From the UHGV virus genome UHGV-0108273: a DNA stretch of 34,823 nucleotides; one strand, given 5' to 3'. Every line of letters begins with the position of its first letter. The first letter of the stretch is position 1. The position numbers and the translations under genes were made by a program. The notes beneath the pieces are model-generated. The model was not told the origin of the DNA. It saw only the letters and a program-made list of their open reading frames with translations, and made no database searches. The DNA is from a virus. Positions 7,052 through 33,808 of this stretch are shown in pieces.

Positions 7052-8626
7052 TTAAACAATTAATTGACATAGAAATGTGATTTTTGTATCGACGTCTTCA
7101 GGACTTAGTGTGAAGGTAAAACCATCGTTGCCAAGTCGCTCATCGTCGGCTGATATAACTCCAAATGAATCGTCATTAAGTCGTTGCCAGCTCCATTCAA
7201 GGTATGCACCAGGACCAACTGCCTCTTTAAGGGTTTTCATATCTGTAATTCTTCTGCTTCCACGATAAATAACCGCCGATAATACGGTGGCTACTTGATC
7301 GTTCTTAAATACAGTTCCTCTCGATGATTCAATCCTCAAAAGAGTTGTTACTTCATCCTCAATCTGGGTCATATGATTTTTGATGCTATCAATCTCTTCT
7401 TGAAGACTTGGACCGCTGCTACCACCAGCAGACATTGATATGCTGTTTGCTGATATTTCGAGCTTATAAGTACCGTCTTCTGTTTTATAATATTTCAAGA
7501 AATTGCTAGAGTCTCCGAAAGCTATTTGCCCCTCATTATCGAGATAAATACCACGAGTATTGTTATCTACAGTCTCTTTAACTCCAGAATATATGGAATT
7601 GTTTGTTATATTAAGTCCACCAATAGTTGCGCCAAAAGCAACCAAATCGCTAACTGATATCTTCTCTGCTGTTACTGATTTCGCTCTAATGACTTGTCCA
7701 TTAAGGCTGTTATAATCAGTTTGTTCGGCTTCTGTGGTAACTCCATCTGTATTAAGTTTGTAATATAGACCGTCTTCACCTTTCACCACTAACTTATCAG
7801 CAACAATAGTATTGGCTTCAATCATGTCACCACGGATAGTAACACCGACCAACTCTCCTGTGAGCGTTTGATCTCCTACAACCAAATCTTTAATAAGACC
7901 ACTTTCAGTAAATAAGTTTGTAATAGCAGCTTTTCCGATATTGGAAAAATCGATATTGGCATATTTACCGTCAAGGTTGGCAATTGTAGCGTTGATGGCA
8001 GTTAAATCCTCTGTGGTAAGATTCTTGAAGTTACCAAAGTCAGATTCTAAATTATGAATATTAGCGTCGACAGCTTCCAGACTTCCTATTGTCGCGTATT
8101 TAATATCAGCTATATCGGCATCGAGTTTCTTAGCGTTTAAGTTTTCTATTTCCGCAGAATTAGCGGTTAGTTTCCCTTCAATTGTTGCATCATTGGCTTT
8201 TAATGTTTCAATATCGGCTTTGCTAGCAGTCAATGTATCTTTAATAGTCACATTATCACTGACTAAGTCATCGATACGACCCATCTGAGCATCGAATTCT
8301 TTAGTACTTACTTTGTCAGCAATTACTATTTCGAATTCTGATATTTGATCACCAATTTCCGTAACAACTTTATTACTAGCCGACGGGGATGACGTGCTAC
8401 CAGTGACAGTCGCAGAATGGTCTTTAATTGTCACAATAACTCGGTCACCGTTTTCTACTACTGTAGTAGATTTCATAGGTGTTAATAGATCAGACCCATC
8501 AAGCTTTACAAATTTCTCACCATTGTAATCGACTATTGTTCCAAAAGAGGTGCTTTCGGAAGGTTCCTTTTTGGTATCTTTAGTCGCTTTTACGAATTGT
8601 GATATCAAATCGCTAGAGAGTCCCAT
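7052..8626 (-). CDS. Tail fibre / baseplate protein with coiled-coil-like repeats (524 aa)
   Basis: Long ORF in the structural operon; heptad-like N/D/I/L-rich central region (ANSAEIENLNAKKLDADIADIKYATIGSLEAVDANIHNLESDF...). Confidence 0.55.
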   Translation of the reverse strand: MGLSSDLISQFVKATKDTKKEPSESTSFGTIVDYNGEKFVKLDGSDLLTPMKSTTVVENGDRVIVTIKDHSATVTGSTSSPSASNKVVTEIGDQISEFEIVIADKVSTKEFDAQMGRIDDLVSDNVTIKDTLTASKADIETLKANDATIEGKLTANSAEIENLNAKKLDADIADIKYATIGSLEAVDANIHNLESDFGNFKNLTTEDLTAINATIANLDGKYANIDFSNIGKAAITNLFTESGLIKDLVVGDQTLTGELVGVTIRGDMIEANTIVADKLVVKGEDGLYYKLNTDGVTTEAEQTDYNSLNGQVIRAKSVTAEKISVSDLVAFGATIGGLNITNNSIYSGVKETVDNNTRGIYLDNEGQIAFGDSSNFLKYYKTEDGTYKLEISANSISMSAGGSSGPSLQEEIDSIKNHMTQIEDEVTTLLRIESSRGTVFKNDQVATVLSAVIYRGSRRITDMKTLKEAVGPGAYLEWSWQRLNDDSFGVISADDERLGNDGFTFTLSPEDVDTKITFLCQLIV

Positions 8627-8632
8627 TAAATA

Positions 8633-9709
8633 TCACCCCCATAATTTAGTTGTAAATACAGCTTTCTCTGTAACTGGACATCCAGGCTCACATTTGATAG
8701 ATTGACTAACAACTTTGGCTTTTATGTTACTTATTCCAGCTCGTTTATAGTTAAGACGTACACAATCATTTAACCGTACAGGACAATACGCGTGAGTATA
8801 TGTCACCGTATATTCAAGGCAGGACACTTCACGGAGTAATTGCTCTGCATATTTTTGAATCTGTGATTCGGTCGGTATACCTGACAAGCTAGGATTAGTC
8901 ACTCGATGTAAAATCTCTCGACCGCGATTGATAGTAGAAGTTGGACTATTTTCGTCGTCATTAACTGCCCTACCGTAATAAATATCGTTAGCGTCAGAGT
9001 ATACTACCTCAACAACATTCGGTATTCCGTACAGATCATGATTTACTGTTATCTCAGGATACAAGATAGAACTATTATTATCATCATAGGTATGAACAGG
9101 TTGCAAAGAGGCCGTATCCTGATCGGGAGCGAAAAGAATACGACCTAATTCGTCTAAACTAAGTTTATATTTTGCATTTGATATCAAATCCGAAGTAAAT
9201 GTTATCCAAGTATCATCCGTGTTTGCTACAAAATCGTTATATAATTCAGTCTCATTGTCTGCTTTTATAACTGGTGCTCTTACGTTGTCACGACATATCT
9301 GATAGGCCATTTTCATGATGTTCTCGCCTTTTAATATGGAATATCCAAGAGGTGGTGGATTCTCCTTTAACTCAATCAGTGGTGTGTAAGCGTCAAGAGT
9401 GTTGTCTTGTTTCTTACCGTCGAATGATGAGGATGGGGTTTGAACTAAGTAAGTGCCTAGAGGATGTTTCTCAGTTAATCCATTTTGAATCGTAATGAGA
9501 TAAACCCTCACATAGCACTCACCGATAGTTTCCGTAATATCTAATGTAGCTGATCCAAGTGTTTCAGCCCCTGAGTCTCTGGAAATAGAACACGATTTCA
9601 CGGTATCTATTCGTTTCATATCTTTCCATGTGCCTGGATCGACTATATAGTATTCAAATGTCTGTTCCATCGACTTAGTCCAATCTGGCATATCAGATAC
9701 CTCCTTCAA
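8633..9709 (-). CDS. Tail / baseplate structural protein (358 aa)
   Basis: ORF overlapping the upstream gene by 17 nt and positioned among tail genes; no specific domain recognised by eye. Confidence 0.5.
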   Translation of the reverse strand: MKEVSDMPDWTKSMEQTFEYYIVDPGTWKDMKRIDTVKSCSISRDSGAETLGSATLDITETIGECYVRVYLITIQNGLTEKHPLGTYLVQTPSSSFDGKKQDNTLDAYTPLIELKENPPPLGYSILKGENIMKMAYQICRDNVRAPVIKADNETELYNDFVANTDDTWITFTSDLISNAKYKLSLDELGRILFAPDQDTASLQPVHTYDDNNSSILYPEITVNHDLYGIPNVVEVVYSDANDIYYGRAVNDDENSPTSTINRGREILHRVTNPSLSGIPTESQIQKYAEQLLREVSCLEYTVTYTHAYCPVRLNDCVRLNYKRAGISNIKAKVVSQSIKCEPGCPVTEKAVFTTKLWG

Positions 9710-11771
9710 CTCTTGTTATGTCTAGAGTAACCGGAATAGTGACATCGGAATGTTTCTGATTAAAAGATACAGTGATGTTTGCCCAATAGCCGCTTCCGGA
9801 CGGTTCCCTAACATACACATCACCCATCCATACGGATAAACGCCGTAATGCATAAAGAGTCTCTTTGTCTTCCTTAGGAATAACCATATTCCAAGTTGCA
9901 GAAGCGCCAACATGAGTGCCATAATAACTAACCGGATACTTTCTTCCGATATAATTTACGAGTGTACTATCCGGTTTGTTATTGTCTGATACATCAATGT
10001 TGTAAGGGATTTTCAGCATCGAACCTACCCATGGAGGAGTTTCGAGTTCTTCGTCTTCAGTTGTGTTAAAATTGGTCCATTCATCGTCCCACTGAATTAT
10101 TACGGAATTGCCTCCTACTGGATACCCAGGTGGATCATAGTAACTAACAGAACCTGTACTTTTCGATGTGGCGACAATTCTATATCGCGCGTAATCTAAA
10201 GCTGGGTGTGGATCAGTTACGTATGATTCATCTAAAGGAGATAGACCGGTAGCTAGCTCGGTAAATGTTCCATCAAACTCTTTCCTATAAACCGATAGCT
10301 CAACATCGGCCACAGCTTCCGACATTTCGTTCAAACAATATGGACTTATGTATGCTGTGTATGTTTCTTCGTCAATTCCTATTTCTGCATCCGGTTCATA
10401 TGTGAATTCAGTCCATGATACATCGAATTCTAATTCCGCTTCTGACGTAAGACCGGAATCCATAGAAGCAGTGCATTTAACTGTATAGCTGATGGCATTT
10501 TCGAGATCTATACTATGTGCAGAGATCTCCAATAACAACTGCTCTTTAGTGTCAAAGTACTGAGAATATAATGCTTCTCCTGCGTTTATTATTTTCTCAT
10601 TGCCTATTTCATCAACTGTTGTGTAAACTTCATTCGATGTTATTTCAACATGATATCCAATTGGCATCTGAGTGTTAGGACCAGTTTCACACTTAAGATA
10701 AATAGGAAACGAATTTACTGTAGTGATAATATTATTTTGATTATCAGTCAAATTCATGGACAATGTGGCCGGAGCATAAACGTTAACTGTTCTCTGTATC
10801 GACCAATCGCCATACTGTTTAGTTACACCAGCAGTTCTAACTCGCCACTTTATAACAGTGCCTTCTTTGTATTGGGTAGTATCCACAGAATAGAAACTGG
10901 TTCTATCTTTATCTTCTTCGACATTGGTATTTTCTATAGTGTGGGTTATTTTTTCTTCATCATAATATATCTCTAATTCAGCAAACGTCTGACTAGAGCC
11001 GTCTTCCGCATTATGAACCCAATATAGAAGTAACTCTTCCCCAGTAATCGCGGTAGTTGTTGAAGACCATGTTGTAGGAGCTGATGGACTTTTACCAATA
11101 ACTATGGATTTAATCGATGTCCATGACGATTCTCCATTATCGTTTACAGCTCGTACTCTAAAGAAATATTCCTGTCCTGATTCCATCCCGGTTATCTGAG
11201 CATATTGGTAAGCAGTAGATGTCACGCTTTTAACCTCTCCAGGATTTTGATCGAAATACGATTGTTTTGTTGTATATTCGATAGTAAAGCTTGTAGCATT
11301 CTCTACTTTTTCCCATTTAAGCTGCACAGACGTGTCCGACGTAGCCTTGATGAAAATTATTTCTTTAGGAGCTGCTGGTACTGTTCCTGCTGAATTCGAG
11401 TAATCAGACCATTCGCCATAGATTTTATCGCTTCCGTATAGGTTCACTGCTCTACAACGAACTCTGTAGTCTGAACCTGGATTAATAGTAAAAGACGCCA
11501 CAGCTCTACAGGTCTGAACCTTTACTGTCGACGTCTTAAACCGAGTTGCCCCACTATAAACTTCAAAAGCGATCTGGTCAGTTCTAGGATCATCAATGTT
11601 ATCGATAGTTGCTGTTAATGTGTACTTATCGATTTTTACACTTGGTGCATTAGGCTTAGCAGGAGGATTACCTGCAAAATTCAAGTATGCACTAGCTTTA
11701 GTGGCAGTCCAATAAGCAACGTCTTTACCATTCACCTTATGCTTTTTAGCGACAGGTTTAACATATACCAT
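9693..11771 (-). CDS. Tail structural protein with two N-terminal fibronectin type III-like domains (692 aa; possibly distal tail or baseplate component)
   Basis: FN3-like segments, e.g. 'PAAPKEIIFIKATSDTSVQLKWEKVENATSFTIEYT...ITGMESGQEYFFRVRAVNDNGESSWTS'. The annotated ATG at 11771 has no obvious Shine-Dalgarno, and the reading frame stays open 49 codons upstream into the preceding gene. Confidence 0.6.
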   Translation of the reverse strand: MVYVKPVAKKHKVNGKDVAYWTATKASAYLNFAGNPPAKPNAPSVKIDKYTLTATIDNIDDPRTDQIAFEVYSGATRFKTSTVKVQTCRAVASFTINPGSDYRVRCRAVNLYGSDKIYGEWSDYSNSAGTVPAAPKEIIFIKATSDTSVQLKWEKVENATSFTIEYTTKQSYFDQNPGEVKSVTSTAYQYAQITGMESGQEYFFRVRAVNDNGESSWTSIKSIVIGKSPSAPTTWSSTTTAITGEELLLYWVHNAEDGSSQTFAELEIYYDEEKITHTIENTNVEEDKDRTSFYSVDTTQYKEGTVIKWRVRTAGVTKQYGDWSIQRTVNVYAPATLSMNLTDNQNNIITTVNSFPIYLKCETGPNTQMPIGYHVEITSNEVYTTVDEIGNEKIINAGEALYSQYFDTKEQLLLEISAHSIDLENAISYTVKCTASMDSGLTSEAELEFDVSWTEFTYEPDAEIGIDEETYTAYISPYCLNEMSEAVADVELSVYRKEFDGTFTELATGLSPLDESYVTDPHPALDYARYRIVATSKSTGSVSYYDPPGYPVGGNSVIIQWDDEWTNFNTTEDEELETPPWVGSMLKIPYNIDVSDNNKPDSTLVNYIGRKYPVSYYGTHVGASATWNMVIPKEDKETLYALRRLSVWMGDVYVREPSGSGYWANITVSFNQKHSDVTIPVTLDITRVEGGI

Positions 11772-19804: not shown

Positions 19805-21373
19805 TTACAGTAGCTCGTTAACTCGATCCTGAATTTTCTGAATCATGTTGTGATCGTATCCAGCTTTTGCGAGGGCATTAATTCGTGCATCTCCATTACC
19901 GTATTTTCCGGCAATGACATCACGGGCTACATTATCAATCACTATCTGATTTACTTTCTTCTGCACAGTGTCTGGATTATAACCAGCTTTCTTGAGAGCA
20001 GACACACGAGCATCACCATTACCCCATTTTCCAGCTAAAACCTCTTTAGCTACTTCATCGATAGATTTAGTAGGTTTTGCAGGAGCTTTAAGTAGTTCAT
20101 TCACTTTCTTCTGTACAGTGTCTGGATTATAACCAGCTTTCTTGAGAGCAGACACACGAGCATCACCATTACCCCATTTACCGGCGATTACTTCTTTAGC
20201 AATTTCATCGATAGATTTGGTCGGTTTTGGCGTAGATGTAGGTTTAGATGTTGGTGCTGGTGTGGAAGAACTTTTCGCATATTTTGGTCTAGCAAAACCA
20301 CGAATCATACCCCAGCCAACCGGAATGGTACGTCTTGCTACTGCTTCTCCTCTGTTACCTTCAATCGCTGTGATTTGTCCGTTTGAAACAGATTCCACAT
20401 ACCCGATATGATCAGAATATCCGTCGTTTGGCTGAGTCTTATCATCCCAGTTATAAACAATTACATCACCAGGTTTCGGAGTAATGGTGCCGTCCTCGAC
20501 CCAAATGCCTTTCTGCTTAAAAATCTTAATATGTTCCTCACAACCAACTTCTGTACCGATGAGATCGACTGCTCCGGATTTGATAGCTGCTGCTGATACT
20601 GTACAATCACACCATTCATCATTAGGTTTAATAGCGTATCCGCGAGCCAAAGGTTTGTGAGAATTATAGATGTTAAGAATCTCAATATATTTACCGTTAG
20701 CTTCAGAATAACCGAGCCAACTTCTCATAACATTAAGAACGTCCTGTGCTGTTACACCCAATTCCGTATCCTCCTGTTTTCCGTAAAAATAGTTCATGTC
20801 GACTTTACCTTTAATACCGCCTACAGTTCCGGAACTCGTATACTGATGAACCAAACAACCGTAATCTGCTTTTCCGTTATAATCAGCGAGCCAGAATTTG
20901 TACTGTTTAATCAGATCATGATTATACCAATTTCGATAGTAGTCGATATTTGCGTAGATTCCAGCTTTGTATCCCTGAGATTCTACGTACTCACAAAAGA
21001 TTCTTGTAAAGTTATTACATTCATTTTTACCAAGTCTCACACCTTTTGCAGCTGCTTTCTTGACTGTGTCATATTCGAAATCTGCGAAGATGATTGTGTT
21101 TTTATCAAGACCAGCTTTTCTAACAACATCAACACAGAATTTTGCTTCGTCAAGTGCGCCCTGTTCGTTTAAGGCATAAATAAAATGGTAAGTTCCTATA
21201 ATCGGAATCTTGTTGTTTTTACACCCATTGACATACTCATAGAATTTTGAATCTACTGTCTTCCTGTAAGAAGATCTAAGAATCGCGAACTCTATTCCGG
21301 AGGACTTGACTTTAGAAAAATCTACATCTCCCTGCCAATAGCTGATATCAATTCCTTTCTTCACAATCATCAT
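19805..21373 (-). CDS. Modular peptidoglycan hydrolase: GH25 muramidase + CHAP-like peptidase + three CW_7 (Cpl-7-type) cell-wall-binding repeats
   Basis: N-terminus 'GIDISYWQGDVDF...FAILRSSY...IGTYHF' fits the GH25 signature. Central Cys...His...E/N segment ('WCDCTVSAA...SDHIGYVESVSNGQITAIEGN') is CHAP-like. Three C-terminal repeats 'KSIDE.AKEV.AGKWGNGDAR.SALKKAGYNPDTVQKKVN' match CW_7. No signal peptide seen. Confidence 0.85.
   Translation of the reverse strand: MMIVKKGIDISYWQGDVDFSKVKSSGIEFAILRSSYRKTVDSKFYEYVNGCKNNKIPIIGTYHFIYALNEQGALDEAKFCVDVVRKAGLDKNTIIFADFEYDTVKKAAAKGVRLGKNECNNFTRIFCEYVESQGYKAGIYANIDYYRNWYNHDLIKQYKFWLADYNGKADYGCLVHQYTSSGTVGGIKGKVDMNYFYGKQEDTELGVTAQDVLNVMRSWLGYSEANGKYIEILNIYNSHKPLARGYAIKPNDEWCDCTVSAAAIKSGAVDLIGTEVGCEEHIKIFKQKGIWVEDGTITPKPGDVIVYNWDDKTQPNDGYSDHIGYVESVSNGQITAIEGNRGEAVARRTIPVGWGMIRGFARPKYAKSSSTPAPTSKPTSTPKPTKSIDEIAKEVIAGKWGNGDARVSALKKAGYNPDTVQKKVNELLKAPAKPTKSIDEVAKEVLAGKWGNGDARVSALKKAGYNPDTVQKKVNQIVIDNVARDVIAGKYGNGDARINALAKAGYDHNMIQKIQDRVNELL
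19840..20230 (-). repeat. CW_7 repeat array at DNA level; two copies nearly identical (about 19953..20036 and 20103..20186, period 150 bp)
   Basis: 'ctttcttctg[c/t]acagtgtctggattataaccagctttcttgagagcagacacacgagcatcaccattaccccattt' occurs twice with 1-2 mismatches; the third copy is more diverged. Confidence 0.8.
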
Positions 21374-23149: not shown

Positions 23150-23470
23150 TTAATAATATAGCGTTAATACATCGTGATTGAGATTATCGGCTTTATACAG
23201 CCTATCGTAAGAGCAGTATGGAAGTTCCATAAGCTTCTGTATAACAGGATTATCCGGTAATTTACTAATCACGGTAATGTCATATTTCCTACGTGTTAAA
23301 TATGTTGAGTTGTTAGCTTTCATGGTTTCGATATCACTTAATGAATACACAATAGCTGGATAACTCATTTGAAGTGACGCTGGGGGTTGATAGAAAACCT
23401 GGTTACTACCAAGAAGTTCTTCAAGTTTCGCTTGTAGTTCTAATCTACTAGCCACGCCACACACCCCCAA
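23150..23470 (-). CDS. Head-tail connector / adaptor-like small protein (106 aa)
   Basis: Small ORF between the capsid and tail genes; overlaps the upstream ORF by 23 nt, so the true start is uncertain. Confidence 0.4.
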   Translation of the reverse strand: MGVCGVASRLELQAKLEELLGSNQVFYQPPASLQMSYPAIVYSLSDIETMKANNSTYLTRRKYDITVISKLPDNPVIQKLMELPYCSYDRLYKADNLNHDVLTLYY

Positions 23471-23765
23471 TCGATAATATCAGTCTAGGATACTGAACTT
23501 CGACGTCTGTCACTTTCCATTTCTCATTTGAGAATTCAATCCAAGTCATGGCAGATACATGATCTCTGGCGTAGGGATCGGCCACTATACTAATCTGGTT
23601 TGAGATATTAATATCATCGTTAACGTTTCCAGAATTCTGCCGTTTCCACCGATTGCTCATGATATCACCAAAATACTGACGTTCGACGATTTCATCTTCT
23701 ATCCAGACACCAGGCTCAACCTCGCCAGTATAAGTAAATCCGATCTTCCCACACCATTTATTCAT
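23448..23765 (-). CDS. Head-tail connector / head closure-like small protein (105 aa)
   Basis: Small ORF immediately downstream of the capsid gene; synteny only. Confidence 0.4.
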   Translation of the reverse strand: MNKWCGKIGFTYTGEVEPGVWIEDEIVERQYFGDIMSNRWKRQNSGNVNDDINISNQISIVADPYARDHVSAMTWIEFSNEKWKVTDVEVQYPRLILSIGGVWRG

Positions 23766-23789: not shown

Positions 23790-25727
23790 TTAGGCAGTTT
23801 CTTTCACGAATTCAAGAGCTACTGCGGAATACGGTTTAACAAGTGTACCGGAGCAACGTGTCTCCATAAGATACTTCTGCTTGTTGTAATCGATATCGAA
23901 ATCATCGAAGAAGTTGATTTCTCCACCCTTATCTGTACCTACGTTGTAATCTTTAAGATTTACATAGATACCAGCAAGCTCATATGTCTTATTTTCATCG
24001 TCTGTTCTTGTAAGACCTTCCATTACCGGAACCGGAACGATTTCTCTTACGCGAAGAGATGCTGCAAGTTTCTGTACGCTATCATAGATAACACGTCCGT
24101 TTGTATCTTCAATGAGCAAGCAATCTGTAAGCATATCCTCAGACATGAACATATCAGGGTTGCCAGATCCTTTATAATTCTTTCTGGATTTGATGCAAGC
24201 TTTGATGAATGCCTTAGCTTTCTCTTCAGCAGTAGCGGAATCGCTTACATTGATAGCTGCTTTAACTGTGAAAAGATCTTCCATCTTCCAGATAGGTCTG
24301 ATGCAGTCCTCATTGATTTTATCGTTAGCCTCTTCAACCGGATCTCTTCCATCACCGATAAGGAATGCGCGAGCAAGTTCCTCATCAAGCATCATACGAA
24401 CTTCTCTCTTCAGCCATGGAAGAATATCGAAATCTGTAATATCAAGCATGTCATCGCGATCTAATGCCTGTTTCTTGTATACAGTTGTTGGATTTGTTAC
24501 ACGTTTGAGAAGCTTAAATACTTCTTCAATTTTAAGTTTGCCTTTCTGGTATCCCTTTGCTCTAGCCTGTGCTGCTGTGATGTCAGCAAAGATAGTTTTG
24601 ATACGGGAGAACGGTGTGTGATGTACTCCGCCAAGTACTTTTGATACCCAATCGTCATTACGTTTGATAAATTCCGGTTCATTGTTAAGATTCTTTGCAT
24701 CCGGGAATAAGATGTCAATGTCTGTGATACCATGAGCAAGCACTGCCTCTTTAAGAGAACCTGAGCGTTTCGCATCTTCGAAAATCGCAGTCATCTCGGA
24801 GTGTGTAAGCACATCATCTGCCATAGGGGTTTCATTGTCGAATACGTTGTGTTTCATATTTTTGTTTCCTCCTTCATTTTCATCATCTTCTTCGGTTTCA
24901 ACACCAGCATCTTCTAATGCCTGTCCGATCATAGCGTACACAACAGTTTTCTGTTTCTCAGAAAGAGTGTTGAATACATCAGCTACAGTTTCTTCTTTGT
25001 TTTCTCCCTTTGTTTCTTCCTCGGCATGTTTTACTTCTTCCTCAGAATGGGTTACTTCTTCTTTGTCTGGTTTATCATCGTTTTCTTCTTTGATACCAGC
25101 ATCTTCTAATGCCTGTCCGATCATAGCGTACACAACAGTTTTCTGTTTTTCAGAAAGAGTGTTGAATACATCAGCTACAGTTTCGTCCTTATTTTCTTCG
25201 GCATTATGTTTTTTGGTTTCTTCTGCCATTTTTTCTTCTCCTTTCTCAGAAGTATCTGCGTGGAACAATGACTCCACATTTTCGATATATTCGCCTGAGC
25301 TGATATATCCCTCTTCATAAGAATCTTCGCCATGCATCATGACAGACTCTATTACTGCGCCTGGATTAGCACCAGCTAAAACCAAACTAAGCTCACGAAT
25401 GACTCCGTGAACTACATTACTTCCCTGCTGTTTAAGTCTGTTGGCATATATGGAAAATCTATTCACATCACCATGCTGAACCAGCAATTTAGCATTCTGC
25501 CCTGATTCCGTATCGTTAAATGTGCAATATGCATACACACCTTCGTCCCTGTTTTCCAGCAAGGCATGACCGAGCACTTCATCTACGCTATTATGCTGAT
25601 GATTCCAAACTAACGGTACAGTTTCACCATCGCACTCTTTGAATGCATCTTTCATGATGACTCTACCGTCCGCACACAGCATGTCAGCTTTAGTAGCCCA
25701 GCCAGAACAATCATATGACTTAGCCAT
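23790..25727 (-). CDS. Fused prohead protease - acidic linker - HK97-fold major capsid protein (645 aa)
   Basis: N-terminal about 150 aa resembles prohead proteases (..VPLVWNHQHNSVDEVLGHA..); central acidic region with a duplicated 30-aa unit; C-terminal about 350 aa of capsid-protein size and composition; preceded by GGAGGCAGAAAATCAAAATGG. Confidence 0.7.
   Translation of the reverse strand: MAKSYDCSGWATKADMLCADGRVIMKDAFKECDGETVPLVWNHQHNSVDEVLGHALLENRDEGVYAYCTFNDTESGQNAKLLVQHGDVNRFSIYANRLKQQGSNVVHGVIRELSLVLAGANPGAVIESVMMHGEDSYEEGYISSGEYIENVESLFHADTSEKGEEKMAEETKKHNAEENKDETVADVFNTLSEKQKTVVYAMIGQALEDAGIKEENDDKPDKEEVTHSEEEVKHAEEETKGENKEETVADVFNTLSEKQKTVVYAMIGQALEDAGVETEEDDENEGGNKNMKHNVFDNETPMADDVLTHSEMTAIFEDAKRSGSLKEAVLAHGITDIDILFPDAKNLNNEPEFIKRNDDWVSKVLGGVHHTPFSRIKTIFADITAAQARAKGYQKGKLKIEEVFKLLKRVTNPTTVYKKQALDRDDMLDITDFDILPWLKREVRMMLDEELARAFLIGDGRDPVEEANDKINEDCIRPIWKMEDLFTVKAAINVSDSATAEEKAKAFIKACIKSRKNYKGSGNPDMFMSEDMLTDCLLIEDTNGRVIYDSVQKLAASLRVREIVPVPVMEGLTRTDDENKTYELAGIYVNLKDYNVGTDKGGEINFFDDFDIDYNKQKYLMETRCSGTLVKPYSAVALEFVKETA
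24903..25184 (-). repeat. Near-perfect direct duplication of about 90 bp (copies at about 24903..24992 and 25095..25184, period 192 bp) inside the capsid gene linker
   Basis: The two copies differ at about 1 nt; each encodes 'ETVADVFNTLSEKQKTVVYAMIGQALEDAG' in the minus-strand frame, embedded in E/D/K-rich sequence. Confidence 0.85.
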
Positions 25728-26076: not shown

Positions 26077-27348
26077 TCATAGGTCCGAAATTGGTGTGTC
26101 ACCTAATGAGGGTTCTTCCTCTGGTGGAATATCTTCTTCACTTATATCCGGAGTTGGATTCAATCCAGTTCCTGTTTGATTGATGTTGCTATTTACTAAC
26201 TGGTCAGCTTTTGGATCATCTGATGGTTTCATACCAATAATCTGTCGAACCTCATTAGCTGTAAGTATTTCATTCTGCGTAAACACTCCAGCGATTTCAG
26301 CCAGTTTACTAAGAGGAACGAGTCTAAACGAATCTCTGAAGAATTTGATAGTCTGATTCTGAGATCGTGCTGTCTTTGTTAAAAACTTGCGTTTCATCTC
26401 ATCGACGATTGCTGCGACAATTGGCTCAATAGTCCTTGAATAGTAGTTCAGCATTTCTTCTTCGCTCGCTGATCCATCGAGTATCGCCTGTGTGATTCCA
26501 AGCTGGCTGTATAGTTGAGCAGTTAGATATTCCACTTGTTTCATCAGGTTATTGTCGAGAGGTCTGTTTAACTGCACTATCTTTTCAGTTCCATCAACAT
26601 AGCCAATACCGTAAGTGGAACCGCTTAGCTGTTGCTCCAGGTCCGCACGTCTTTCATTAGCTAGTTTTCGCCGAGCTTCAGATTTAATAGAATATGGTAG
26701 CTGAATAATCATGTCCAATTTTCCACTACTGATACGTTCGTCCATTCTATCGAGAAGGGCAAGTTTTCGCGTAAGACGCTGCATGGTAGAATTATGCTCA
26801 TTGATAACCGCATATAAAGGATTCTCAACTATAGCTACCATTTTCTTTTCAAGCTTAATGTCTTCTCGTTCTCCTGTTCGTTCATTGTAAACTCTAACTT
26901 TCACATGGTTTGGATACCATTCAAGAATTTTACCAGTTCGCATGGAAAGTATTTTATATGATTCAGTTTGAGATGGATCTATATCTGTATCAACAGGAAC
27001 TATTGCTACACAGCCCTCGTCAAGCATAGACATAACGATATCTTGTGTGAATGCTCTACCAGTCTGATCGATATTCGCTTCAAGATTCAGACATTTATTA
27101 AGAGTCGAATCAATCTTTTCTATAAATCTACCGTTACTGTCTATACGACAGTGATTAATATTTATAGAAGAGACATCCAAAGCTATTCGATTAAAAATAG
27201 CAGTAACAACAGATCGCTCATTACCCCTAGTGAATCTCGGCCTATCCGGTCTATTTGAATATCCTGGACCAATGTTACGAGAGTCATATGTCGGATCTCG
27301 GTTCATGAAAGCATTCCACGAATGCCGAAGTCTATCTATAAAATCCAT
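26077..27348 (-). CDS. Portal protein (HK97-family-like), 423 aa
   Basis: Size and position between the terminase and capsid genes; N-terminal region 'ERSVVTAIFNRIALDVSSININH' resembles the conserved portal N-terminal helix; acidic C-terminus; preceded by AGGAGGTAAAATCAAAATGG. Confidence 0.65.
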   Translation of the reverse strand: MDFIDRLRHSWNAFMNRDPTYDSRNIGPGYSNRPDRPRFTRGNERSVVTAIFNRIALDVSSININHCRIDSNGRFIEKIDSTLNKCLNLEANIDQTGRAFTQDIVMSMLDEGCVAIVPVDTDIDPSQTESYKILSMRTGKILEWYPNHVKVRVYNERTGEREDIKLEKKMVAIVENPLYAVINEHNSTMQRLTRKLALLDRMDERISSGKLDMIIQLPYSIKSEARRKLANERRADLEQQLSGSTYGIGYVDGTEKIVQLNRPLDNNLMKQVEYLTAQLYSQLGITQAILDGSASEEEMLNYYSRTIEPIVAAIVDEMKRKFLTKTARSQNQTIKFFRDSFRLVPLSKLAEIAGVFTQNEILTANEVRQIIGMKPSDDPKADQLVNSNINQTGTGLNPTPDISEEDIPPEEEPSLGDTPISDL

Positions 27349-27362
27349 TTTGATTTTACCTC

Positions 27363-27959
27363 CTATGGTGTTGATGGATTAAGACTTTCAGCGATTTTAG
27401 CGTCTATGTATGAATGTATTTCAGCTATATCCGCTTCCGTCCAATAATCAGTACCTCTGACAGGTGTCTTCCCATCAGTACCAGGATCTCCTTTTGGTCC
27501 AGCATCACCAGTATCACCTTTTGGTCCCTGAACACCCTGTTCACCTTGAGGTCCGGTTAATCCTGTATCTCCCTTTGGACCCTGAATACCTTGTTCACCT
27601 TGAGGTCCAGTAGCTCCGGTATCACCTTTTGGTCCCTGGATACCCTGTTCACCTTTCGGGCCTGTAGCTCCGGTATCACCTTTCGGACCTTTAAGACTAG
27701 CTAACCATTCAGTCTCGCTTCCTTCGAAACCAGTAGAAAGCGCTACTTGATAAGCAGAATCACCTGGATCTCCTTTTTCACCAGGAGGGCCAGGAGTGGT
27801 TGAACCAGTTCCTCCGTTAGTAATGAGCTCGCATAATTCCCAAAGCAATTCTTCAGCTCTAGACTGAGGTCTCGGCAATCCTTCAGTACCTTTCTGTAAG
27901 ATAGTATTTTTCATATATTCTTCAAATCTACTATCCGGTATGTATGTTTCATCGATCAT
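27363..27959 (-). CDS. Collagen-like triple-helix repeat protein (198 aa)
   Basis: About 25 uninterrupted Gly-X-Y triplets (GPKGDTGATGPKGEQGIQGPKGDTGATGPQGEQG...) flanked by non-collagen N- and C-terminal segments; located between the terminase and portal genes. Confidence 0.75.
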   Translation of the reverse strand: MIDETYIPDSRFEEYMKNTILQKGTEGLPRPQSRAEELLWELCELITNGGTGSTTPGPPGEKGDPGDSAYQVALSTGFEGSETEWLASLKGPKGDTGATGPKGEQGIQGPKGDTGATGPQGEQGIQGPKGDTGLTGPQGEQGVQGPKGDTGDAGPKGDPGTDGKTPVRGTDYWTEADIAEIHSYIDAKIAESLNPSTP

Positions 27960-27977
27960 TTTGTCACCTCTAAGTGC

Positions 27978-28223
27978 TTAGAGTTCAATTCCTTCAATGG
28001 CTGCTCTTACCTCAAGACATCTGAGATACTCGCCCATGTAACGTTTCTGCTCCTGAAGTTTTGCTATCGGGCAAGTTGGTTTGAAGTCGAGAACTCCTGC
28101 TTCATGTTTTACAAGCATCTGATGTAATTTGTCATATCGAATCTTTGTCTGATAATACTCAGCTTTAAAACGATCTTTATAATCGGAACTATTCATAAGT
28201 TCAATCGTGTCTTTTAACTCCAT
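27978..28223 (-). CDS. Hypothetical small protein (81 aa)
   Basis: ORF with AAGGAGGTAAATTCAAAATGG initiation context; no recognisable motif. Confidence 0.45.
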   Translation of the reverse strand: MELKDTIELMNSSDYKDRFKAEYYQTKIRYDKLHQMLVKHEAGVLDFKPTCPIAKLQEQKRYMGEYLRCLEVRAAIEGIEL

Positions 28224-28243
28224 TTTGAATTTACCTCCTTATC

Positions 28244-28300
28244 TTATTTACGGCCGCCTTTCTTACCGCCTTTTCCTTTACGTCCACCTTTACATGCCAT
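28244..28300 (-). CDS. Possible micro-ORF encoding an 18-aa Lys/Gly-rich peptide (MACKGGRKGKGGKKGGRK)
   Basis: ATG 7 nt downstream of AGAGGTG, in the gap between the terminase stop and the 81-aa gene; below the ORF-track size cutoff; hand translated. Confidence 0.25.
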   Translation of the reverse strand: MACKGGRKGKGGKKGGRK

Positions 28301-28312
28301 AGTTTTTCACCT

Positions 28313-30046
28313 CTATTCAAAAGCATCCTTGTTCAGTTTATAAGCAACGAACGCATCCATAAGTGCTGCAACGCAGTCAATCTTATGCTCTCGTTTGCGT
28401 TTATAAAGTTTTCTGTTACCGTTGGTGTCTTCAAGGGTGATACAGTTTCCCATAGCAAACGACATGATCTCTTCATCGAATCGAAGCATTCTCTCTTCAG
28501 AAAGGTTCTTTAATTCTCCAAGAGGAATAGATTCTGTCTTTGCTCCCTGAATTACTTTCTCAATACCAAACGGACCATTCTCGGTTTCCCATCTATTAAC
28601 AAATTCCTTTGCTCCATACGGGTCAAAGCCGAAACACCGAACATCGTAATCACTATCGATAATATGTTTATCCAGATCGTCGTAAACTTGCATCATATCG
28701 AGGATCGCACCGTCGAGAACTATCAAACTACCTTCATTCATAAACTGATCGTATTTCGTCCGCATAGCTGCTGGTAATTTCATCAGAGTTAATGAAGAAA
28801 TATAGTTTCTAGTCTTAATACCGAACGTTCCATCCTGTAAAGGGAACATAAATGAGAATGAGCAAAAGTCGTCTCCCTGCGATAAGTCTGCTCCCATAGC
28901 ACAAGGTAATCCCCAGTAATCTCTACGTCTATGAGGTATTGTCTCTTCATAAGTAAAGTAATAGGTATAACCTTCCAACGGGATTCCAAATCTTTTCGCA
29001 AGAATATCGTTCTTTGCTGCTGGGTTCTGTTCGGCTCTTTCCACGTCAAGCTGATATGCTTCAGGGCTAACGGTCTTTCCAATATTCGGATTAGCCTTAA
29101 GCCACATTTCTGGATTTCCTACTTCCTCAATATCATCGAGCTTATACCACCAGATTGATACGTGAGGATTAGTGTACTCGTCTCGAAGAATCTTAGATAA
29201 TTCCATTTTGATTGTGTCGCCGCTACCATTTCGTACAGTACCTTCTGAACTGGTTGCCACAATAAGATAATCATCATTTTTTGAGGCACCCTGTTCAACA
29301 GCACCAACGACGTCTTCTCGTACATCTCCTGATAGCCATTCATCTATAGTGGAGATCTTATCTCTTCGTGACTGCAATTTATCGATGGACATTGGTAGAA
29401 CTTCGATTATTGAATTTGTAAGGAAGTTCTCTACACCCTTTTTCGTACTAGCTAACTTCTGTCGATTCGCCCTTGAGCCTGTAGTATTCTGTAAAGAGCC
29501 CTCTGTTAAGAATTTAAACAAAGGACCTCTAGCTCTTGCTATAGCTGTACGAATAGGAGCTAATGTTGCTTCTGATTGTCTCATTGTCGGCGCGGTTACT
29601 AATTGCTGAGTAGTACTCGTGTCGACATTTAAAAAATAAGCCTGAATACATGCCGCATACATCGATTTAGCAGCACCTCTGGCTACGATCAAATACTGTT
29701 TGTTAACCAGTCGTTTCTTAATTCTCTTGGTAACATATCGTCCTTCGTCGTAGTCATAGACTGATCGTTCAACGAAGTAATACCAACCGAAAATCTGTTC
29801 CGCCCAAAGTTTAAACGAATCAAGTAAATGTAGATCTTCGCCATCAGTTAATGTGAGTTCGTTCTCACAATAATTAATAAAACCCTGGATCGCTTGGTCG
29901 TCATACCAAATTCCAGGGTTAGCTATAAGATCATCTATTCGATTCATCTCCATCGAGATTTCTTTACATATTGGGATTTCTCCTCGCATGACCGCCTCTC
30001 TAAAGCGGCCGTAATATTTCGGAACAGCCGTGTTTGAAAGACTCAT
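28313..30046 (-). CDS. terL: Terminase large subunit (577 aa)
   Basis: Size; N-terminal ATPase region with a Walker A-like 'ARGAAKS' segment; acidic-residue-rich C-terminal nuclease-like region; position upstream of the portal gene. Confidence 0.85.
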   Translation of the reverse strand: MSLSNTAVPKYYGRFREAVMRGEIPICKEISMEMNRIDDLIANPGIWYDDQAIQGFINYCENELTLTDGEDLHLLDSFKLWAEQIFGWYYFVERSVYDYDEGRYVTKRIKKRLVNKQYLIVARGAAKSMYAACIQAYFLNVDTSTTQQLVTAPTMRQSEATLAPIRTAIARARGPLFKFLTEGSLQNTTGSRANRQKLASTKKGVENFLTNSIIEVLPMSIDKLQSRRDKISTIDEWLSGDVREDVVGAVEQGASKNDDYLIVATSSEGTVRNGSGDTIKMELSKILRDEYTNPHVSIWWYKLDDIEEVGNPEMWLKANPNIGKTVSPEAYQLDVERAEQNPAAKNDILAKRFGIPLEGYTYYFTYEETIPHRRRDYWGLPCAMGADLSQGDDFCSFSFMFPLQDGTFGIKTRNYISSLTLMKLPAAMRTKYDQFMNEGSLIVLDGAILDMMQVYDDLDKHIIDSDYDVRCFGFDPYGAKEFVNRWETENGPFGIEKVIQGAKTESIPLGELKNLSEERMLRFDEEIMSFAMGNCITLEDTNGNRKLYKRKREHKIDCVAALMDAFVAYKLNKDAFE

Positions 30047-30089: not shown

Positions 30090-30662
30090 TTAACGACCAT
30101 AACGAGCATTGTTCAATATTCTTGACACATAGGTTCGTCCAGTCTTTTTGTATGCTTCTTGAGATTCGAGCAACATAGCATCTGCCTTATCAGATAATCT
30201 TGAAGCATCTTCGAACATTTTATTATACTCCTTAGCATCTGCTGTTTTGTTCTGTGCAGAAGCTATAAATCTTGAAACTGCGTTTTTACCAAGTTTCTTG
30301 CGCTGCTCTTTAACCTGATTCCACTTTGCATCAGCAACATCACTAGCTTTTGATGCTGCATCAACCTTTTTAGAATAATCTTTTACTGCTGATTTTTTGG
30401 CATCTACTTTCGCTTTCTTTATGTCGGCTTTTGCTTCTCTTAAAGAAGCCTTAGCTGCATCTCTTTGGATCTTATTACCTTTTCGAATAGCTCCAATACC
30501 GTTCAACTGACCAGAATTCCTAGCTGCTTTACGAGCTTCTAATCCATCAGCTCTGGCTTTCTTAGAGGCTTGTCTAAAGGTCGGCTGATCGCTTCTCCTT
30601 CTAACTCCCCACTTCATGCCTTTTACACCGTAGTGCATTAATTTGTCATCATAGTATCCCAT
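30090..30662 (-). CDS. Paralog 4 of a four-gene family with a conserved N-terminal H[YH]GVKGMKWGVRR motif; highly basic Lys/Ala-rich body (190 aa)
   Basis: 'LMHYGVKGMKWGVRRR' near the N-terminus; remainder K/A/R-rich coiled-coil-like; strong RBS AAGAGGTGAAAATTCAAAATGG. Confidence 0.6.
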   Translation of the reverse strand: MGYYDDKLMHYGVKGMKWGVRRRSDQPTFRQASKKARADGLEARKAARNSGQLNGIGAIRKGNKIQRDAAKASLREAKADIKKAKVDAKKSAVKDYSKKVDAASKASDVADAKWNQVKEQRKKLGKNAVSRFIASAQNKTADAKEYNKMFEDASRLSDKADAMLLESQEAYKKTGRTYVSRILNNARYGR

Positions 30663-30691: not shown

Positions 30692-31828
30692 TTATGTGTT
30701 CCCGGACAGCATCCCAATGATTTCTCTATCCGATAGTTTCGTGTTCGGATGTTGTTTACGATAATTATTTATCGCTTTTGTGTTAAAAGCATATGATACT
30801 CCTACTGGAACAGTTGCTCCCAAAGCATACGTAGCTCCCTTTTTTGAGCCAGTTATTATTTTGTTGACGTAGTCTTCAGCTTTCTGTATTTTCTTAGCTT
30901 GATCAAGATTCTTTGAAATCTCATCAACCGTTAATTCTCTAAAATTAGTTACAGAAATCTTTCCTTTCGCATCAAATACTATGAGAGGATTTTTTGTCTT
31001 GTAGTCATTAAACTTCATATCGTTAATGTCTTGAATAGCATTATATCCTTTTGATTTCATAGCACTATAAAATGTTTTGGATGAATATGAATCATGATTC
31101 CCAGCTAATTTAGAATTGAAATTTTCATACAGTTTTGATAACTCACTATCTGTATACGTTCCGAATTTAGCAAATCTTATAGGCTTTTCATTCGAACTTA
31201 TAGAGCTTGGTAGATTATGTACATACTCTGCGAACTTTTTATCATTCTTATAAAGATCTTTGAATACTTTCTTCGCATTATTCTTAGAAGCAACTTTGAC
31301 ATCATCTTTAACTAATAAAGACATCACATATGCTTTTCCAGTCTGTTGATATCGTTCTCTACCAAGTTTACCTGCATATTTTATGTTATCGGTTTTCTTG
31401 TATGAAGCGAAGAAATTATCGTATAACTTTCCTCCGGTATCTTTCATCTCTACTCGTTGCAACAACTTTCCAGACTTTATAGTTTTATCACAGTAATCTT
31501 TAATGTACTTATTTGTTGCATATGCAGCTATCGAAGCAACTGTGATACCGGCTGTTATGGCTATGATTTTCTCAGTTTTGATACGTCTATCAGCCGCCAT
31601 CTTAGCCTGTTTAGGACTCATCCCTTTGCTAATATACTTAGATTCAATCCTCGATCTGTGACTCGATCTATTTGTGCTCTTATCGGATTCGTTTTGGTAT
31701 TTATTCTTTCCAGCATTAGTGAGAGAACCGTCTTTATTTTGGTAACGTCTTATTCCCCATTTCATGCCTTTTACACCGTAATGGTAGAGTTCATCTGTAG
31801 AAGTTATTCTTGAAATTGCATACTCCAT
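30692..31828 (-). CDS. Paralog 3 of the same family (378 aa), with a predicted transmembrane segment
   Basis: 'ELYHYGVKGMKWGIRRYQNKDGSLTNAGKNKYQ'; hydrophobic stretch 'IIAITAGITVASIAAYATNKYI'; homologous to paralog 2 along most of its length (e.g. 'YSAMKSKGYNAIQDINDMKFNDYKTKNPLIVFDAKGK'). Confidence 0.6.
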   Translation of the reverse strand: MEYAISRITSTDELYHYGVKGMKWGIRRYQNKDGSLTNAGKNKYQNESDKSTNRSSHRSRIESKYISKGMSPKQAKMAADRRIKTEKIIAITAGITVASIAAYATNKYIKDYCDKTIKSGKLLQRVEMKDTGGKLYDNFFASYKKTDNIKYAGKLGRERYQQTGKAYVMSLLVKDDVKVASKNNAKKVFKDLYKNDKKFAEYVHNLPSSISSNEKPIRFAKFGTYTDSELSKLYENFNSKLAGNHDSYSSKTFYSAMKSKGYNAIQDINDMKFNDYKTKNPLIVFDAKGKISVTNFRELTVDEISKNLDQAKKIQKAEDYVNKIITGSKKGATYALGATVPVGVSYAFNTKAINNYRKQHPNTKLSDREIIGMLSGNT

Positions 31829-31845: not shown

Positions 31846-32904
31846 TTAACTCAAATACTTATCAAGTTTACGGTTCACATAAGAATCGCACTCCGACACA
31901 CTCTTCGTTCCGAGCTTAGATACGAAACCAACTGTATTAGCTCCGATTTCCTTAACGATTCTTTCTGAATTGTATTTTCGATACAGCTTGTCTACAATTT
32001 TAGGATTCGCTTCGGTTACAGACTGAAGTTTCACCGAATCTGTATCAAACACAATCATAGGTCTTTTCGCATGATAACTTGAATACTCCTTATCGTTATA
32101 GTCAAGTAAAGCATTATAACCTTTCTTCTTTAACTCTGAGTAGAAACGATTTTGTGCAGCTATCTCTTGTTGATTATGGTTTACAAGGGATAGATTCAGA
32201 GCCTTATAGATAGCCACCTTTTCAGAATTTCTAAGTTTACTTGGATCTTTCTCCAAAGCATTTTGAGCTTGTTTAAATAGAACCTGTTGAGTAGGTCGCC
32301 GCATCTTCTCTTTAGAGTCAGCTATCGAAGCCTCTACATTCTTCTTAAACTCTGGCTCTTTCAATAAGTTTGCGGTTATGTAGCCAGCGTTCTCATCTGA
32401 CGGAACTTTCAACTTCTTCACAGTTTCCAGTTTCAACTGATAAACCTTCATATTATTGCTTTTATCTCTTAGAGATTTTGCAACGTTGAAATCTTCCTCA
32501 CTGCCGGTTGCCTCAGCCTGTTTCTCAGCACGTCTTGCATCCGAAGCAGCTCTACTCGTAAGATTCTTACCAAATAATCCGAGATACTTATCCATGTCTT
32601 TCTTTTTATATGTAGCGTAGAATGCGAAATTCTCGAATTCTTTTGAAGTCTGGATTCGAGCGAATGTAGTACCTTTTCTTAAATATGTATCAACGTACTG
32701 CTTACCTGTGACTTGAGTTTTGACAGTGTTTTTTAATTCAGAAACTTTCATACTCATTAACGTAGTCTTTTTCTGTGTGATATGAGTATCTGAAGAATTC
32801 TGATATCGTTTCTTACCAGATGGTGTCAATGTTCCGTCAGCATACTGATATCTCCTAACACCCCACTTTTGACCTTTAACGCCGTGATGATAAAGTTCTT
32901 CCAT
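31846..32904 (-). CDS. Paralog 2 of the same family (352 aa)
   Basis: 'MEELYHHGVKGQKWGVRRYQYADGTLTPSGKKRYQ'; shares C-terminal blocks with paralog 3 ('YSELKKKGYNALLDYNDKEYSSYHAKRPMIVFDTDS'). Confidence 0.6.
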   Translation of the reverse strand: MEELYHHGVKGQKWGVRRYQYADGTLTPSGKKRYQNSSDTHITQKKTTLMSMKVSELKNTVKTQVTGKQYVDTYLRKGTTFARIQTSKEFENFAFYATYKKKDMDKYLGLFGKNLTSRAASDARRAEKQAEATGSEEDFNVAKSLRDKSNNMKVYQLKLETVKKLKVPSDENAGYITANLLKEPEFKKNVEASIADSKEKMRRPTQQVLFKQAQNALEKDPSKLRNSEKVAIYKALNLSLVNHNQQEIAAQNRFYSELKKKGYNALLDYNDKEYSSYHAKRPMIVFDTDSVKLQSVTEANPKIVDKLYRKYNSERIVKEIGANTVGFVSKLGTKSVSECDSYVNRKLDKYLS

Positions 32905-32907: not shown

Positions 32908-33453
32908 TTACTTACCACTTAGCGCTTTGATGGCTAAAGCAATGCTTAATGCCGACCCGGTTACTGCTAAAACATCACCGGTGGTTTCTAGCATTCTACT
33001 AGCATACTCGCGTCCTTTCGTGGTTTTTTGAGGAGCAAACATATCATTATATTGTTTCTCCAAAAGAGCTCTATTAATCTGATCACGCATTTCTTTATCG
33101 GTCATGTTGCTTAAGTCCATCTTTTGTTTCGGATTATTTCTGATAGACTTATCGGTCATGGTCTTTATATTACGGCTCAGTCCAGCAGTAGCATCGGTCA
33201 AAGATTTGGTTCTTTCCAAGTCTTCTTTAACATATCGTCTAGCATCTGCTATGTTGTCAGTTCGACCGTTCTTTTTAGACTGCTTATAATAAGTACCAGT
33301 AGACTCATCATACTTATTAAATTCTTTTTCTCTAGAGTCTCTTTCATATCTCTTCTGACCTTTTTCAGTAAGAGTACCATCCTTGTTCTGGTATCTTCTT
33401 ACTCCCCATTTCATGCCTTTAATTCCATGATGATAGAGTTCATTATTGTCCAT
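32908..33453 (-). CDS. Paralog 1 of the same family (181 aa), with a hydrophobic C-terminal tail
   Basis: 'ELYHHGIKGMKWGVRRYQNKDGTLTEKGQKRYE'; C-terminal 'VLAVTGSALSIALAIKALSGK'; RBS AAAGGAGGTAATTCAAAATGG. Confidence 0.6.
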   Translation of the reverse strand: MDNNELYHHGIKGMKWGVRRYQNKDGTLTEKGQKRYERDSREKEFNKYDESTGTYYKQSKKNGRTDNIADARRYVKEDLERTKSLTDATAGLSRNIKTMTDKSIRNNPKQKMDLSNMTDKEMRDQINRALLEKQYNDMFAPQKTTKGREYASRMLETTGDVLAVTGSALSIALAIKALSGK

Positions 33454-33808
33454 TTTGAATTACCTCCTTTCCAGTTTGTTCTGCCTCCACATTAAGTCTC
33501 CATTCAAGCTCGTTGATCATCTGTTTCATGGCTTCCATTACAGCAGAGCTAAGAGGAGGATCGAAAATAAGTCTAACCTTTAGATACATATAGGTTTTTA
33601 CAGCCTCGAAGTTTTTGTTATCGGTCGGAAGAAATTCATCCCATGTAGTAAACTTATCCGTGATATGAAATCCATTACTAGGACCAACTCCCAACTGACT
33701 AAGTATCATGAATACAGAATTGATATGCATGATGATATCAGAATCAAAGTGCTCATAATCTTCTGTTATACCGAGCATCTTTTTAACTGATGTAAGTATA
33801 CTTTCCAA
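33443..33808 (-). CDS. Hypothetical protein (121 aa), possibly a gp6-like head-tail connector or a small packaging protein
   Basis: N-terminal 'VKKMLGITEDYEHFDSDIIMHINSVFMILSQLG' loosely resembles connector-family N-termini; uncertain. Confidence 0.4.
   Translation of the reverse strand: MESILTSVKKMLGITEDYEHFDSDIIMHINSVFMILSQLGVGPSNGFHITDKFTTWDEFLPTDNKNFEAVKTYMYLKVRLIFDPPLSSAVMEAMKQMINELEWRLNVEAEQTGKEVIQNGQ

Follow-up and report, generated by a model that had tools for sequence, protein, structure and literature searches.

Introduction

Collagen-like rods are already known from phage tail fibres and from one capsid auxiliary protein. The gp12 protein of Bacillus phage SPP1 is a non-essential collagen-like protein that binds the capsid in 180 copies at the hexamer centres (Zairi et al. 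2014, as cited in PMC6813328 and PMC6316719). In the collagen proteins of Escherichia coli prophages, C-terminal and coiled-coil domains have been shown to trimerise (PMC3368898). Here we describe a collagen-like gene in the 34,823-nucleotide virus genome UHGV-0108273 (the whole of this stretch is called the window below), where it lies between the genes for the large terminase subunit and the portal protein. On balance, we read this gene as encoding a dispensable accessory fibre of the virion, composed of a constant N-terminal module, a collagen stalk of variable length and a short, conserved C-terminal module.

Results

A collagen-like protein with conserved ends and a variable stalk

The open reading frame (ORF) at 27363–27959 on the minus strand starts with ATG and encodes 198 amino acids followed by a stop codon; its assignment draws on the ORF listing, a match to Pfam Collagen and about 64 full-length homologue clusters. 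The Collagen model (PF01391) scored 44 bits against a cut-off of 27.2 (E 1.9e-11), exceeding the gathering threshold, and in 200 shuffles of the window read in six frames the longest Gly-X-Y run arising by chance was 2–4 triplets, against the 25 observed. A Pfam search of the protein found no domain besides Collagen, and thus no PfN, PfC or other fibre domain, and direct reading of it revealed no signal peptide, membrane segment or LPXTG motif.

The protein is built from five consecutive parts, all encoded on the minus strand. The N-terminal module (residues 1–50; 27810–27959) consists of two repeats of ~22 residues (PDSRFEEYM… and LPRPQSRAEELL…) that are predicted to be helical. After a Gly-rich linker comes a short collagen segment of four Gly-X-Y triplets (residues 57–68; 27756–27791), followed by an interruption motif, AYQVALSTGFEGSETEWLASLK (residues 69–90; 27690–27755), which forms near-invariant columns in the alignment of homologues. 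The main collagen stalk comprises 25 unbroken Gly-X-Y triplets (residues 91–165; 27465–27689), and the C-terminal module (residues 166–198; 27366–27464; PVRGTDYWTEADIAEIHSYIDAKIAESLNPSTP) combines a junction motif with an amphipathic helix. Within the stalk, Tandem Repeats Finder detected a DNA repeat with a period of 54 bp, or 18 residues, in 3.2 copies with 84% matches (27511–27683). An earlier sequence-only reading, made without database searches, had described a 198-residue collagen-like protein with about 25 contiguous triplets, a description borne out here with four further triplets added. The same reading had put forward structure prediction of the non-collagen ends, and this succeeded in part: the N-terminus gave two confident helices and a C-terminal helix was predicted at residues 175–193, but the model of the whole protein had low confidence.

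The ends of the gene are tightly packed against its neighbours, with gaps of 18 nt to the upstream gene, which encodes a Sequestin-family protein, and 14 nt to the portal gene. Every gene in the window is on the minus strand. A ribosome-binding site, GAGGTGA, is placed 4 nt 5′ of the ATG (27964–27970, minus strand), and a comparison of upstream regions at nine loci showed that a ribosome-binding site is kept 5′ of the homologues regardless of which gene precedes them. No minus-strand promoter or terminator site flanking the gene rose above chance, the counts being at or below the shuffle expectation. Given the short gaps, the good ribosome-binding site and the lack of a promoter or terminator of its own, the collagen gene is read within the late operon, without transcription signals of its own.

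In a large protein collection we identified ~64 clusters of full-length homologues, 128–198 amino acids long, which share 52–85% identity over 97–100% of the query. When aligned, the N-terminal 50 and the C-terminal 33–36 residues are of fixed length and near invariant, and 16 sequences have 22 invariant columns in the N-terminal module. The main stalk varies from 2 triplets (P0063) to 24 (P0003), by whole triplets without exception, and the 25 triplets of the window copy make it the longest stalk among the homologues. The 54-bp tandem repeat is the likely source of stalk expansion. Codon comparison of six loci, at which synonymous sites are near saturation, gave ratios of nonsynonymous to synonymous substitution (dN/dS) of 0.02–0.11 for the N-terminus and 0–0.06 for the C-terminus. 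Both ends of the protein are thus under strong purifying selection, and the pairing of low dN/dS at the ends with a variable stalk argues that the function sits in the ends, with the collagen as a spacer of variable length.

The same data bear on whether the gene could be what is left of a longer, degenerating fibre gene, now functionless after the loss of its distal domain. A relative of 567 residues (P0127) has the same N-terminus and collagen followed by a large C-terminal domain, and at one locus (L090, 1053–1460) a rearranged copy consists of a 79-residue collagen-less ORF joining the N-terminal module to a different short helix, with the usual C-terminus persisting as an untranslated remnant ~100 bp downstream. 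Given the homopolymer runs at its joints, that copy reflects either a genuine deletion or replacement event or an error of assembly. Decay is nonetheless very improbable as an account of the window gene: the short form is the common one (64 clusters) and has its own intact, conserved C-terminal module, and changes in the stalk keep both the reading frame and the triplet register. The pseudogene reading was rejected, since dN/dS is far below 1 at both ends.

The N-terminal repeat module heads diverse fibre-type proteins

The repeat of the N-terminal module follows the consensus LPxPQSRxExLL, with two copies within residues 8–47 and then GGTGS. No Pfam, PHROG or NCBIfam model covers it. A word-index search with the N-terminus alone returned only three truncated or rearranged entries, so that an exhaustive profile search was needed; profile A1, built from the N-terminus, was run against 1.84 billion representatives at E ≤ 1e-3. 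This identified 161 clusters with the module, in proteins of 60–1,142 residues. In almost all of them it occupies the extreme N-terminus, in two to at least five copies, and is followed by a Gly-rich linker.

What follows the linker differs greatly between clusters. The module is combined with collagen in P0125, P0128 and P0144, and in P0127 the same N-terminus and collagen lead into a globular region of ~430 residues. Elsewhere it precedes BspA-type leucine-rich repeats (LRR_5) and DUF285 (P0135, P0147, P0196, P0226) or the Pfam phage tail-tip domain PF24243 (P0126, P0129), and in P0199 it is followed by a region that matches phrog_6782, annotated "tail fiber protein" (5.5e-40). Four of these proteins, P0126, P0127, P0131 and P0135, are encoded in the terminase–portal slot of phages of the same lineage (loci L096, L098, L100 and L097, respectively). 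P0199 comes from another lineage, and there the module heads a 639-residue protein whose gene follows XkdX and precedes that of the lysin, where tail-fibre genes are ordinarily found.

AlphaFold2 with an alignment of 70 sequences modelled residues 1–56 with a predicted local distance difference test score (pLDDT) of 83.5 and helices at 11–20 and 34–48. Structure searches with this model returned generic helical hairpins only.

Some features of module proteins lie outside the window copy. In many of them (P0165, P0169, P0181, P0197 and others) a cysteine-rich loop, NCCDKCGCDGLP, stands between the repeats, a sign of possible metal binding or of disulphides within a trimer; only one invariant cysteine, C43, is present in the window protein. 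At locus L099 (1096–4050), from another phage lineage, a gene for a 639-residue protein of tail-fibre type with five repeat copies comes after XkdX; a tyrosine recombinase gene follows immediately, ahead of an amidase gene, and the arrangement might point to a fibre switched by inversion. The leucine-rich repeat protein P0147 also has a weak match to the Listeria–Bacteroides repeat (Flg_new), a cell-surface-binding repeat; in the window, two Flg_new domains (E 5e-33) are found in the 594-residue distal tail protein at 2741–4525 (minus strand).

The interruption motif and C-terminal module recur in phage fibres

The AYQ…WLASLK motif at residues 69–90 is shared by many collagen-like fibres of phages, and a helix-turn-helix is predicted for it with low confidence (helices at 69–75 and 82–88). 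The C-terminal combination of TPVRGxDYWT and an amphipathic helix likewise ends other collagen proteins that have unrelated N-termini (P0071, P0089, P0101, P0108), and a similar junction is present inside a longer fibre protein of locus L080. Matches to 51 PHROGs, the best being phrog_819 (7e-22), span residues ~49–185 and thereby the motif, collagen and junction, with the alignments to tail-fibre PHROGs beginning at residue ~55; none covers the N-terminus. Sequence search of the Protein Data Bank yielded matches through the collagen repeat only, to animal collagens, BclA, HylP hyaluronidase and the upper fibre of phage 80alpha.

The terminase–portal junction is a hypervariable cargo slot

On the minus strand, the slot is bordered upstream by the large terminase gene (28313–30046; PF20441, 1.7e-31; phrog_9, 3e-102) and downstream by the portal gene (26077–27348; PF04860, 6.5e-22; phrog_12, 2e-46). 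The sequence-only reading had placed the collagen gene between these two, and both flanks are as it said; however, an 81-residue Sequestin-family gene (27978–28223, minus strand; PF21825, 2.4e-20) separates it from the terminase gene and is slot cargo in its own right, not part of a fibre. That reading had also remarked that collagen is more usual in tail fibres, and two genes in the window's tail module indeed carry shorter Gly-X-Y runs. This module extends over about 1–23,100, so that the collagen gene lies outside it, upstream of portal. One of the two genes is a large fibre ORF running off the start of the window (1–2430, minus strand), with 14 triplets at 1288–1413 and 5 at 2140–2184, and the other encodes a 374-residue protein (5909–7033, minus strand) in which three runs of 5–6 triplets are spaced by a repeat of ~77 residues. 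Neither contains the N-terminal module.

To place the slot in context we compared relatives chosen by portal similarity (59–83%), comprising 80 loci from IMG/VR and 43 prophage loci from GTDB genomes; the sequence covered by each locus ends within 10 kb of the gene, short of the distal tail genes, and slot counts cover the 113 in which both flanks are readable. The hosts of the prophages are Lachnospiraceae (e.g. Hungatella, Enterocloster and [Ruminococcus] torques), Ruminococcus, Oscillospiraceae and Christensenellaceae, which places the phage in a lineage that is temperate and infects gut Clostridia. Across the 113 relatives, terminase and portal are between 14 bp and 4,455 bp apart (the window equivalent is 27349–28312). 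No gene at all is present in 51 of them, and filled slots mostly hold DUF7211 paralogues (54 ORFs) and Sequestin. The terminase–portal junction is a hypervariable cargo slot.

Neither the collagen gene nor its N-terminal module was found in any of the 113 portal relatives. A pattern scan of all IMG/VR recovered one complete copy of the gene (L095) and one cut by the end of a contig (L003), and a scan of GTDB genomes with the N-terminus gave no match. All homologue contexts that were read are nevertheless in the terminase–portal slot, with the rank of the gene within it varying. The order terminase–Sequestin–collagen–portal is found at L084–L089 and, in rearranged form, at L090, while the other contexts are terminase–collagen–Sequestin–365 aa–90 aa–portal (L082), terminase–188 aa–collagen–DUF7211–portal (L093) and terminase–collagen–portal (L095). 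The L082 phage differs from the window in slot gene order even though its terminase is 98% and its portal 96% identical. The contigs of L082, L084 and L089 are of genome scale, at 78–108 kb. Short linkers with a ribosome-binding site are common to the cassettes, whichever gene comes next. The collagen gene is therefore a rare, dispensable passenger whose position is conserved where it is present. Conservation of position, which had been suggested as a check on the sequence-only reading, was seen among the homologues but could not be traced through the wider set of relatives, in which the gene is absent. The suggestion of an accessory (moron) gene fits the patchy distribution and the hypervariable slot, although the lack of a promoter and terminator of its own sets it apart from a classical moron.

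Experiments have established that the PF21825 family, named Sequestin, sequesters 3′ cyclic ADP-ribose (3'cADPR), the signal of type I Thoeris (bioRxiv 10.1101/2025.07.12.664507). The Sequestin gene in the window implies an anti-Thoeris sponge within the late structural operon of this Clostridia phage.

The company of this validated sponge family invites the alternative that the collagen-like protein is not part of the virion but an accessory protein acting in the infected cell or after lysis, for example in counter-defence with Sequestin or in superinfection exclusion. The slot is plastic and its cargo patchy, the collagen gene adjoins Sequestin in most contexts, and the slot order differs between near-identical phages, as at L082. 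One database entry (P0044) even reads through from Sequestin into the collagen protein; this fusion is, however, a lost stop codon with the intergenic linker translated. The collagen gene stands without Sequestin at two loci (L093 and L095), and the converse holds in 14 relatives. The collagen, the AYQ…WLASLK motif, the TPVRGxDYWT junction and the N-terminal repeat otherwise occur in fibre-type proteins, and nothing in the protein, be it a signal peptide, a membrane segment or an LPXTG motif, would direct it to the host surface. We know of no collagen-like anti-defence protein. We consider a role outside the virion unlikely. An obligatory functional link to Sequestin was rejected, as each gene occurs without the other.

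A proposed headless accessory fibre

An accessory virion fibre, the reading that we favour, would be assembled as follows. Produced late through co-transcription with the terminase and portal genes, three chains would associate via the C-terminal amphipathic helix (~175–193) and the conserved junction TPVRGTDYWT. This association would set the register and nucleate a collagen triple helix, which would then close progressively in the direction of the N-terminus. The 25 triplets would form a thin rod of ~21 nm (75 residues at ~0.29 nm each), the AYQ…WLASLK motif a small knot or hinge, followed by the four further triplets, and the N-terminal module, with its two helical LPxPQSRxExLL repeats, would dock the trimer on the particle. 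A rod of this kind, lacking a globular receptor-binding head, might serve as a spacer, a whisker or a fibre making weak contacts of low specificity, and the length of the stalk would be adjusted as repeat units of 9 and 18 residues are gained and lost.

Phage fibres usually combine a constant N-terminus that docks on the particle with a variable distal end. Because the N-terminal module is likewise followed by swappable distal parts, we read it as a virion anchor; because collagen rods need a trimerisation nucleus, the C-terminal helix is read as a trimerisation cap. The change of stalk length by whole triplets between fixed ends is the behaviour expected of a spacer. From these features we infer trimer formation, incorporation into the virion and the use of the N-terminus as an anchor. 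A role of the protein in adsorption would be speculative.

Several points weigh against this interpretation. Incorporation into the virion is deduced from sequence, and the protein has no recognisable receptor-binding domain. The AlphaFold2 monomer model of the whole protein, made with an alignment of 49 sequences, has a pLDDT of 41, falling to ~30 over the repeat, and is usable for helix positions only. When the full protein was searched against GenBank phages by tblastn, matches began only at residue 68, and two variants of the module gave no match, and hence no cultured relative, among 50,697 GenBank phage records. The absence of the gene from all 113 sampled relatives implies that the docking target either pre-exists in phages without the gene or does not exist. 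Since the slot also holds a cytoplasmic anti-defence sponge, residence in it implies no structural role.

We also considered a wider scheme in which the slot is a plug-in site for interchangeable accessory fibres, all docking by the shared LPxPQSRxExLL module to one site near the portal, neck or capsid. In such a scheme the distal ends may be swappable between a bare collagen rod, collagen with a globular head, BspA-type leucine-rich repeats and a tail-tip domain, and gut phages could then change the adhesion of their particles by cassette, independently of the tail-fibre genes. We regard this as quite improbable.

Other genes in the window

Upstream of the terminase gene are three paralogues on the minus strand (30090–30662, 30692–31828 and 31846–32904) with the DUF7211 N-terminal motif YHYGVKGMKWGxRR. 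This family, the commonest slot cargo in the relatives, has a weak PHROG match to "virion structural protein".

In the tail module, between the tail-assembly-chaperone genes and the gene for a 2,387-residue tape measure, lies a gene for a lysin-like protein of 522 residues (19805–21373, minus strand) that combines a GH25 muramidase, a CHAP domain and three CW_7 repeats. A relative, L100, has Amidase_2, SPOR and CW_7 at the equivalent position. The 522-residue protein either belongs to the virion as a lysin or is an endolysin encoded in an unusual place. A gene at 23790–25727 (minus strand) encodes a prohead protease–major capsid fusion of 645 residues, in whose acidic middle region ~60 residues are duplicated in tandem; the segment ETVADVFNTLSEKQKTVVYAMIGQALEDAG is present twice. 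Further structural genes include one for a Phage_connect_2 protein (33443–33808), those for connector proteins of DUF7253 type (23150–23765) and those for distal tail proteins (2741–11771).

Discussion

Three aspects of this locus are new: a "headless" minimal form comprising a putative anchor, a rod and a proposed cap with no distal binding domain; its consistent residence in a hypervariable terminase–portal cargo slot alongside an anti-Thoeris sponge; and an N-terminal repeat module, as yet without a model, at the head of at least 161 protein clusters with adhesin-type distal domains. If the module is a virion anchor, annotators could use it to recognise a class of accessory fibres and adhesins in uncultured phages of gut Clostridia, and it would offer a handle for displaying cargo on such particles.

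Comparison with known systems

SPP1 gp12 resembles the window protein in being small, trimeric (a proposal in our case) and non-essential, and in having a short helix on the C-terminal side of a central Gly-X-Y run. Both genes belong to that half of the late operon which is devoted to the head and packaging. Whereas gp12 has 64 residues, a short N-terminus and 8 triplets, the window protein has 198 residues and 29 triplets together with an unrelated 50-residue N-terminal repeat module and the internal AYQ…WLASLK motif, and SPP1 gene 12 lies between genes 11 and 13 (scaffold and major capsid), in contrast to the position between Sequestin and portal observed here. Pairwise BLAST gave 42% identity over 43 residues, mostly Gly-X-Y, with unrelated N-termini; within this segment the post-collagen part of gp12, TEAQYNDIISRLEA, aligns weakly with TEADIAEIHSYIDA of the window protein. 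The case for homology between the two is thin.

The gp12 precedent nevertheless raises the alternative of a decoration fibre of the capsid shell, the idea named first in the sequence-only reading. Once the capsid has expanded, trimers would bind at hexamer centres or quasi-threefold sites in the manner of gp12 or the phi29 head fibres, stand out from the head and help particles to disperse or to adhere weakly. The position of the gene in the head and packaging part of the operon, beside the portal gene, and the example of gp12, a proven collagen-like capsid binder (PMC6813328, PMC6316719) of the same plan on a smaller scale, together form an argument for attachment to the head; the weak post-collagen alignment agrees with it, and dispensability suits a decoration protein. 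Set against this, the similarity to gp12 is mostly one of Gly-X-Y composition, with unrelated N-termini, and the gp12 gene is located elsewhere, between the scaffold and major capsid genes. Decoration proteins are usually kept with the capsid protein, but the collagen gene is missing from all 113 relatives with similar portals. The N-terminal module occurs, moreover, on proteins with C-termini of tail-tip or tail-fibre type and at a tail-fibre locus. Decoration of the capsid shell thus seems doubtful. For the accessory fibre that we prefer, the tail or neck is no less likely than the capsid to be the place of attachment, and we weakly favour the tail or neck over the capsid shell because the module is found with a tail-tip domain, with a tail-fibre PHROG and at a tail-fibre locus.

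The prophage side-tail-fibre collagen proteins EPclA–D of E. coli O157 (PMC3368898) are arranged like the window protein: a collagen rod connects a domain at the N-terminus with a trimerisation domain at the C-terminus, the latter being a proposal in our case. In both families collagen length varies by multiples of three residues, and records of Stx phages are among the tblastn matches to the window protein. The EPcl proteins, however, have PfN, PCoil and PfC domains and are encoded in the tail-fibre region, and the end modules of the window protein are unrelated to theirs.

The top tblastn matches were collagen-like minor tail proteins of cluster A mycobacteriophages (L5 gp6 type), with 51–63% identity over residues 68–170. 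We take these proteins to be located in the virion. Genes 4 and 5 of mycobacteriophage RhynO are flanked by the small terminase gene on one side and the lysis genes on the other; gene 4 is in the left arm and, like the window gene, away from the tail module, although it is upstream of the large terminase rather than between terminase and portal. Mycobacteriophages are an example of collagen-like tail genes located within the packaging region. The match is limited to the motif and the collagen, the mycobacteriophage proteins being larger (389 aa) with a different N-terminus, and they are conserved within their cluster whereas the window gene is sporadic.

Membership of the Scl1/Scl2/Lcl bacterial adhesins was rejected, with NCBIfam scores of 54–61 bits against cut-offs of 325–500 and neither a signal peptide nor an LPXTG motif. 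T4 fibritin is a dispensable trimeric accessory fibre with an N-terminal anchor, a C-terminal folding nucleus and no receptor-binding head. The rods of fibritin and of the phi29 head fibre gp8.5 are alpha-helical coiled coils, not collagen, and have no sequence or detectable fold relationship to the window protein. The principle proposed here is nonetheless shared with gp8.5, which is a dispensable trimeric rod attached by its N-terminus, with a C-terminal trimerisation element and without a receptor-binding head (PMC7602432).

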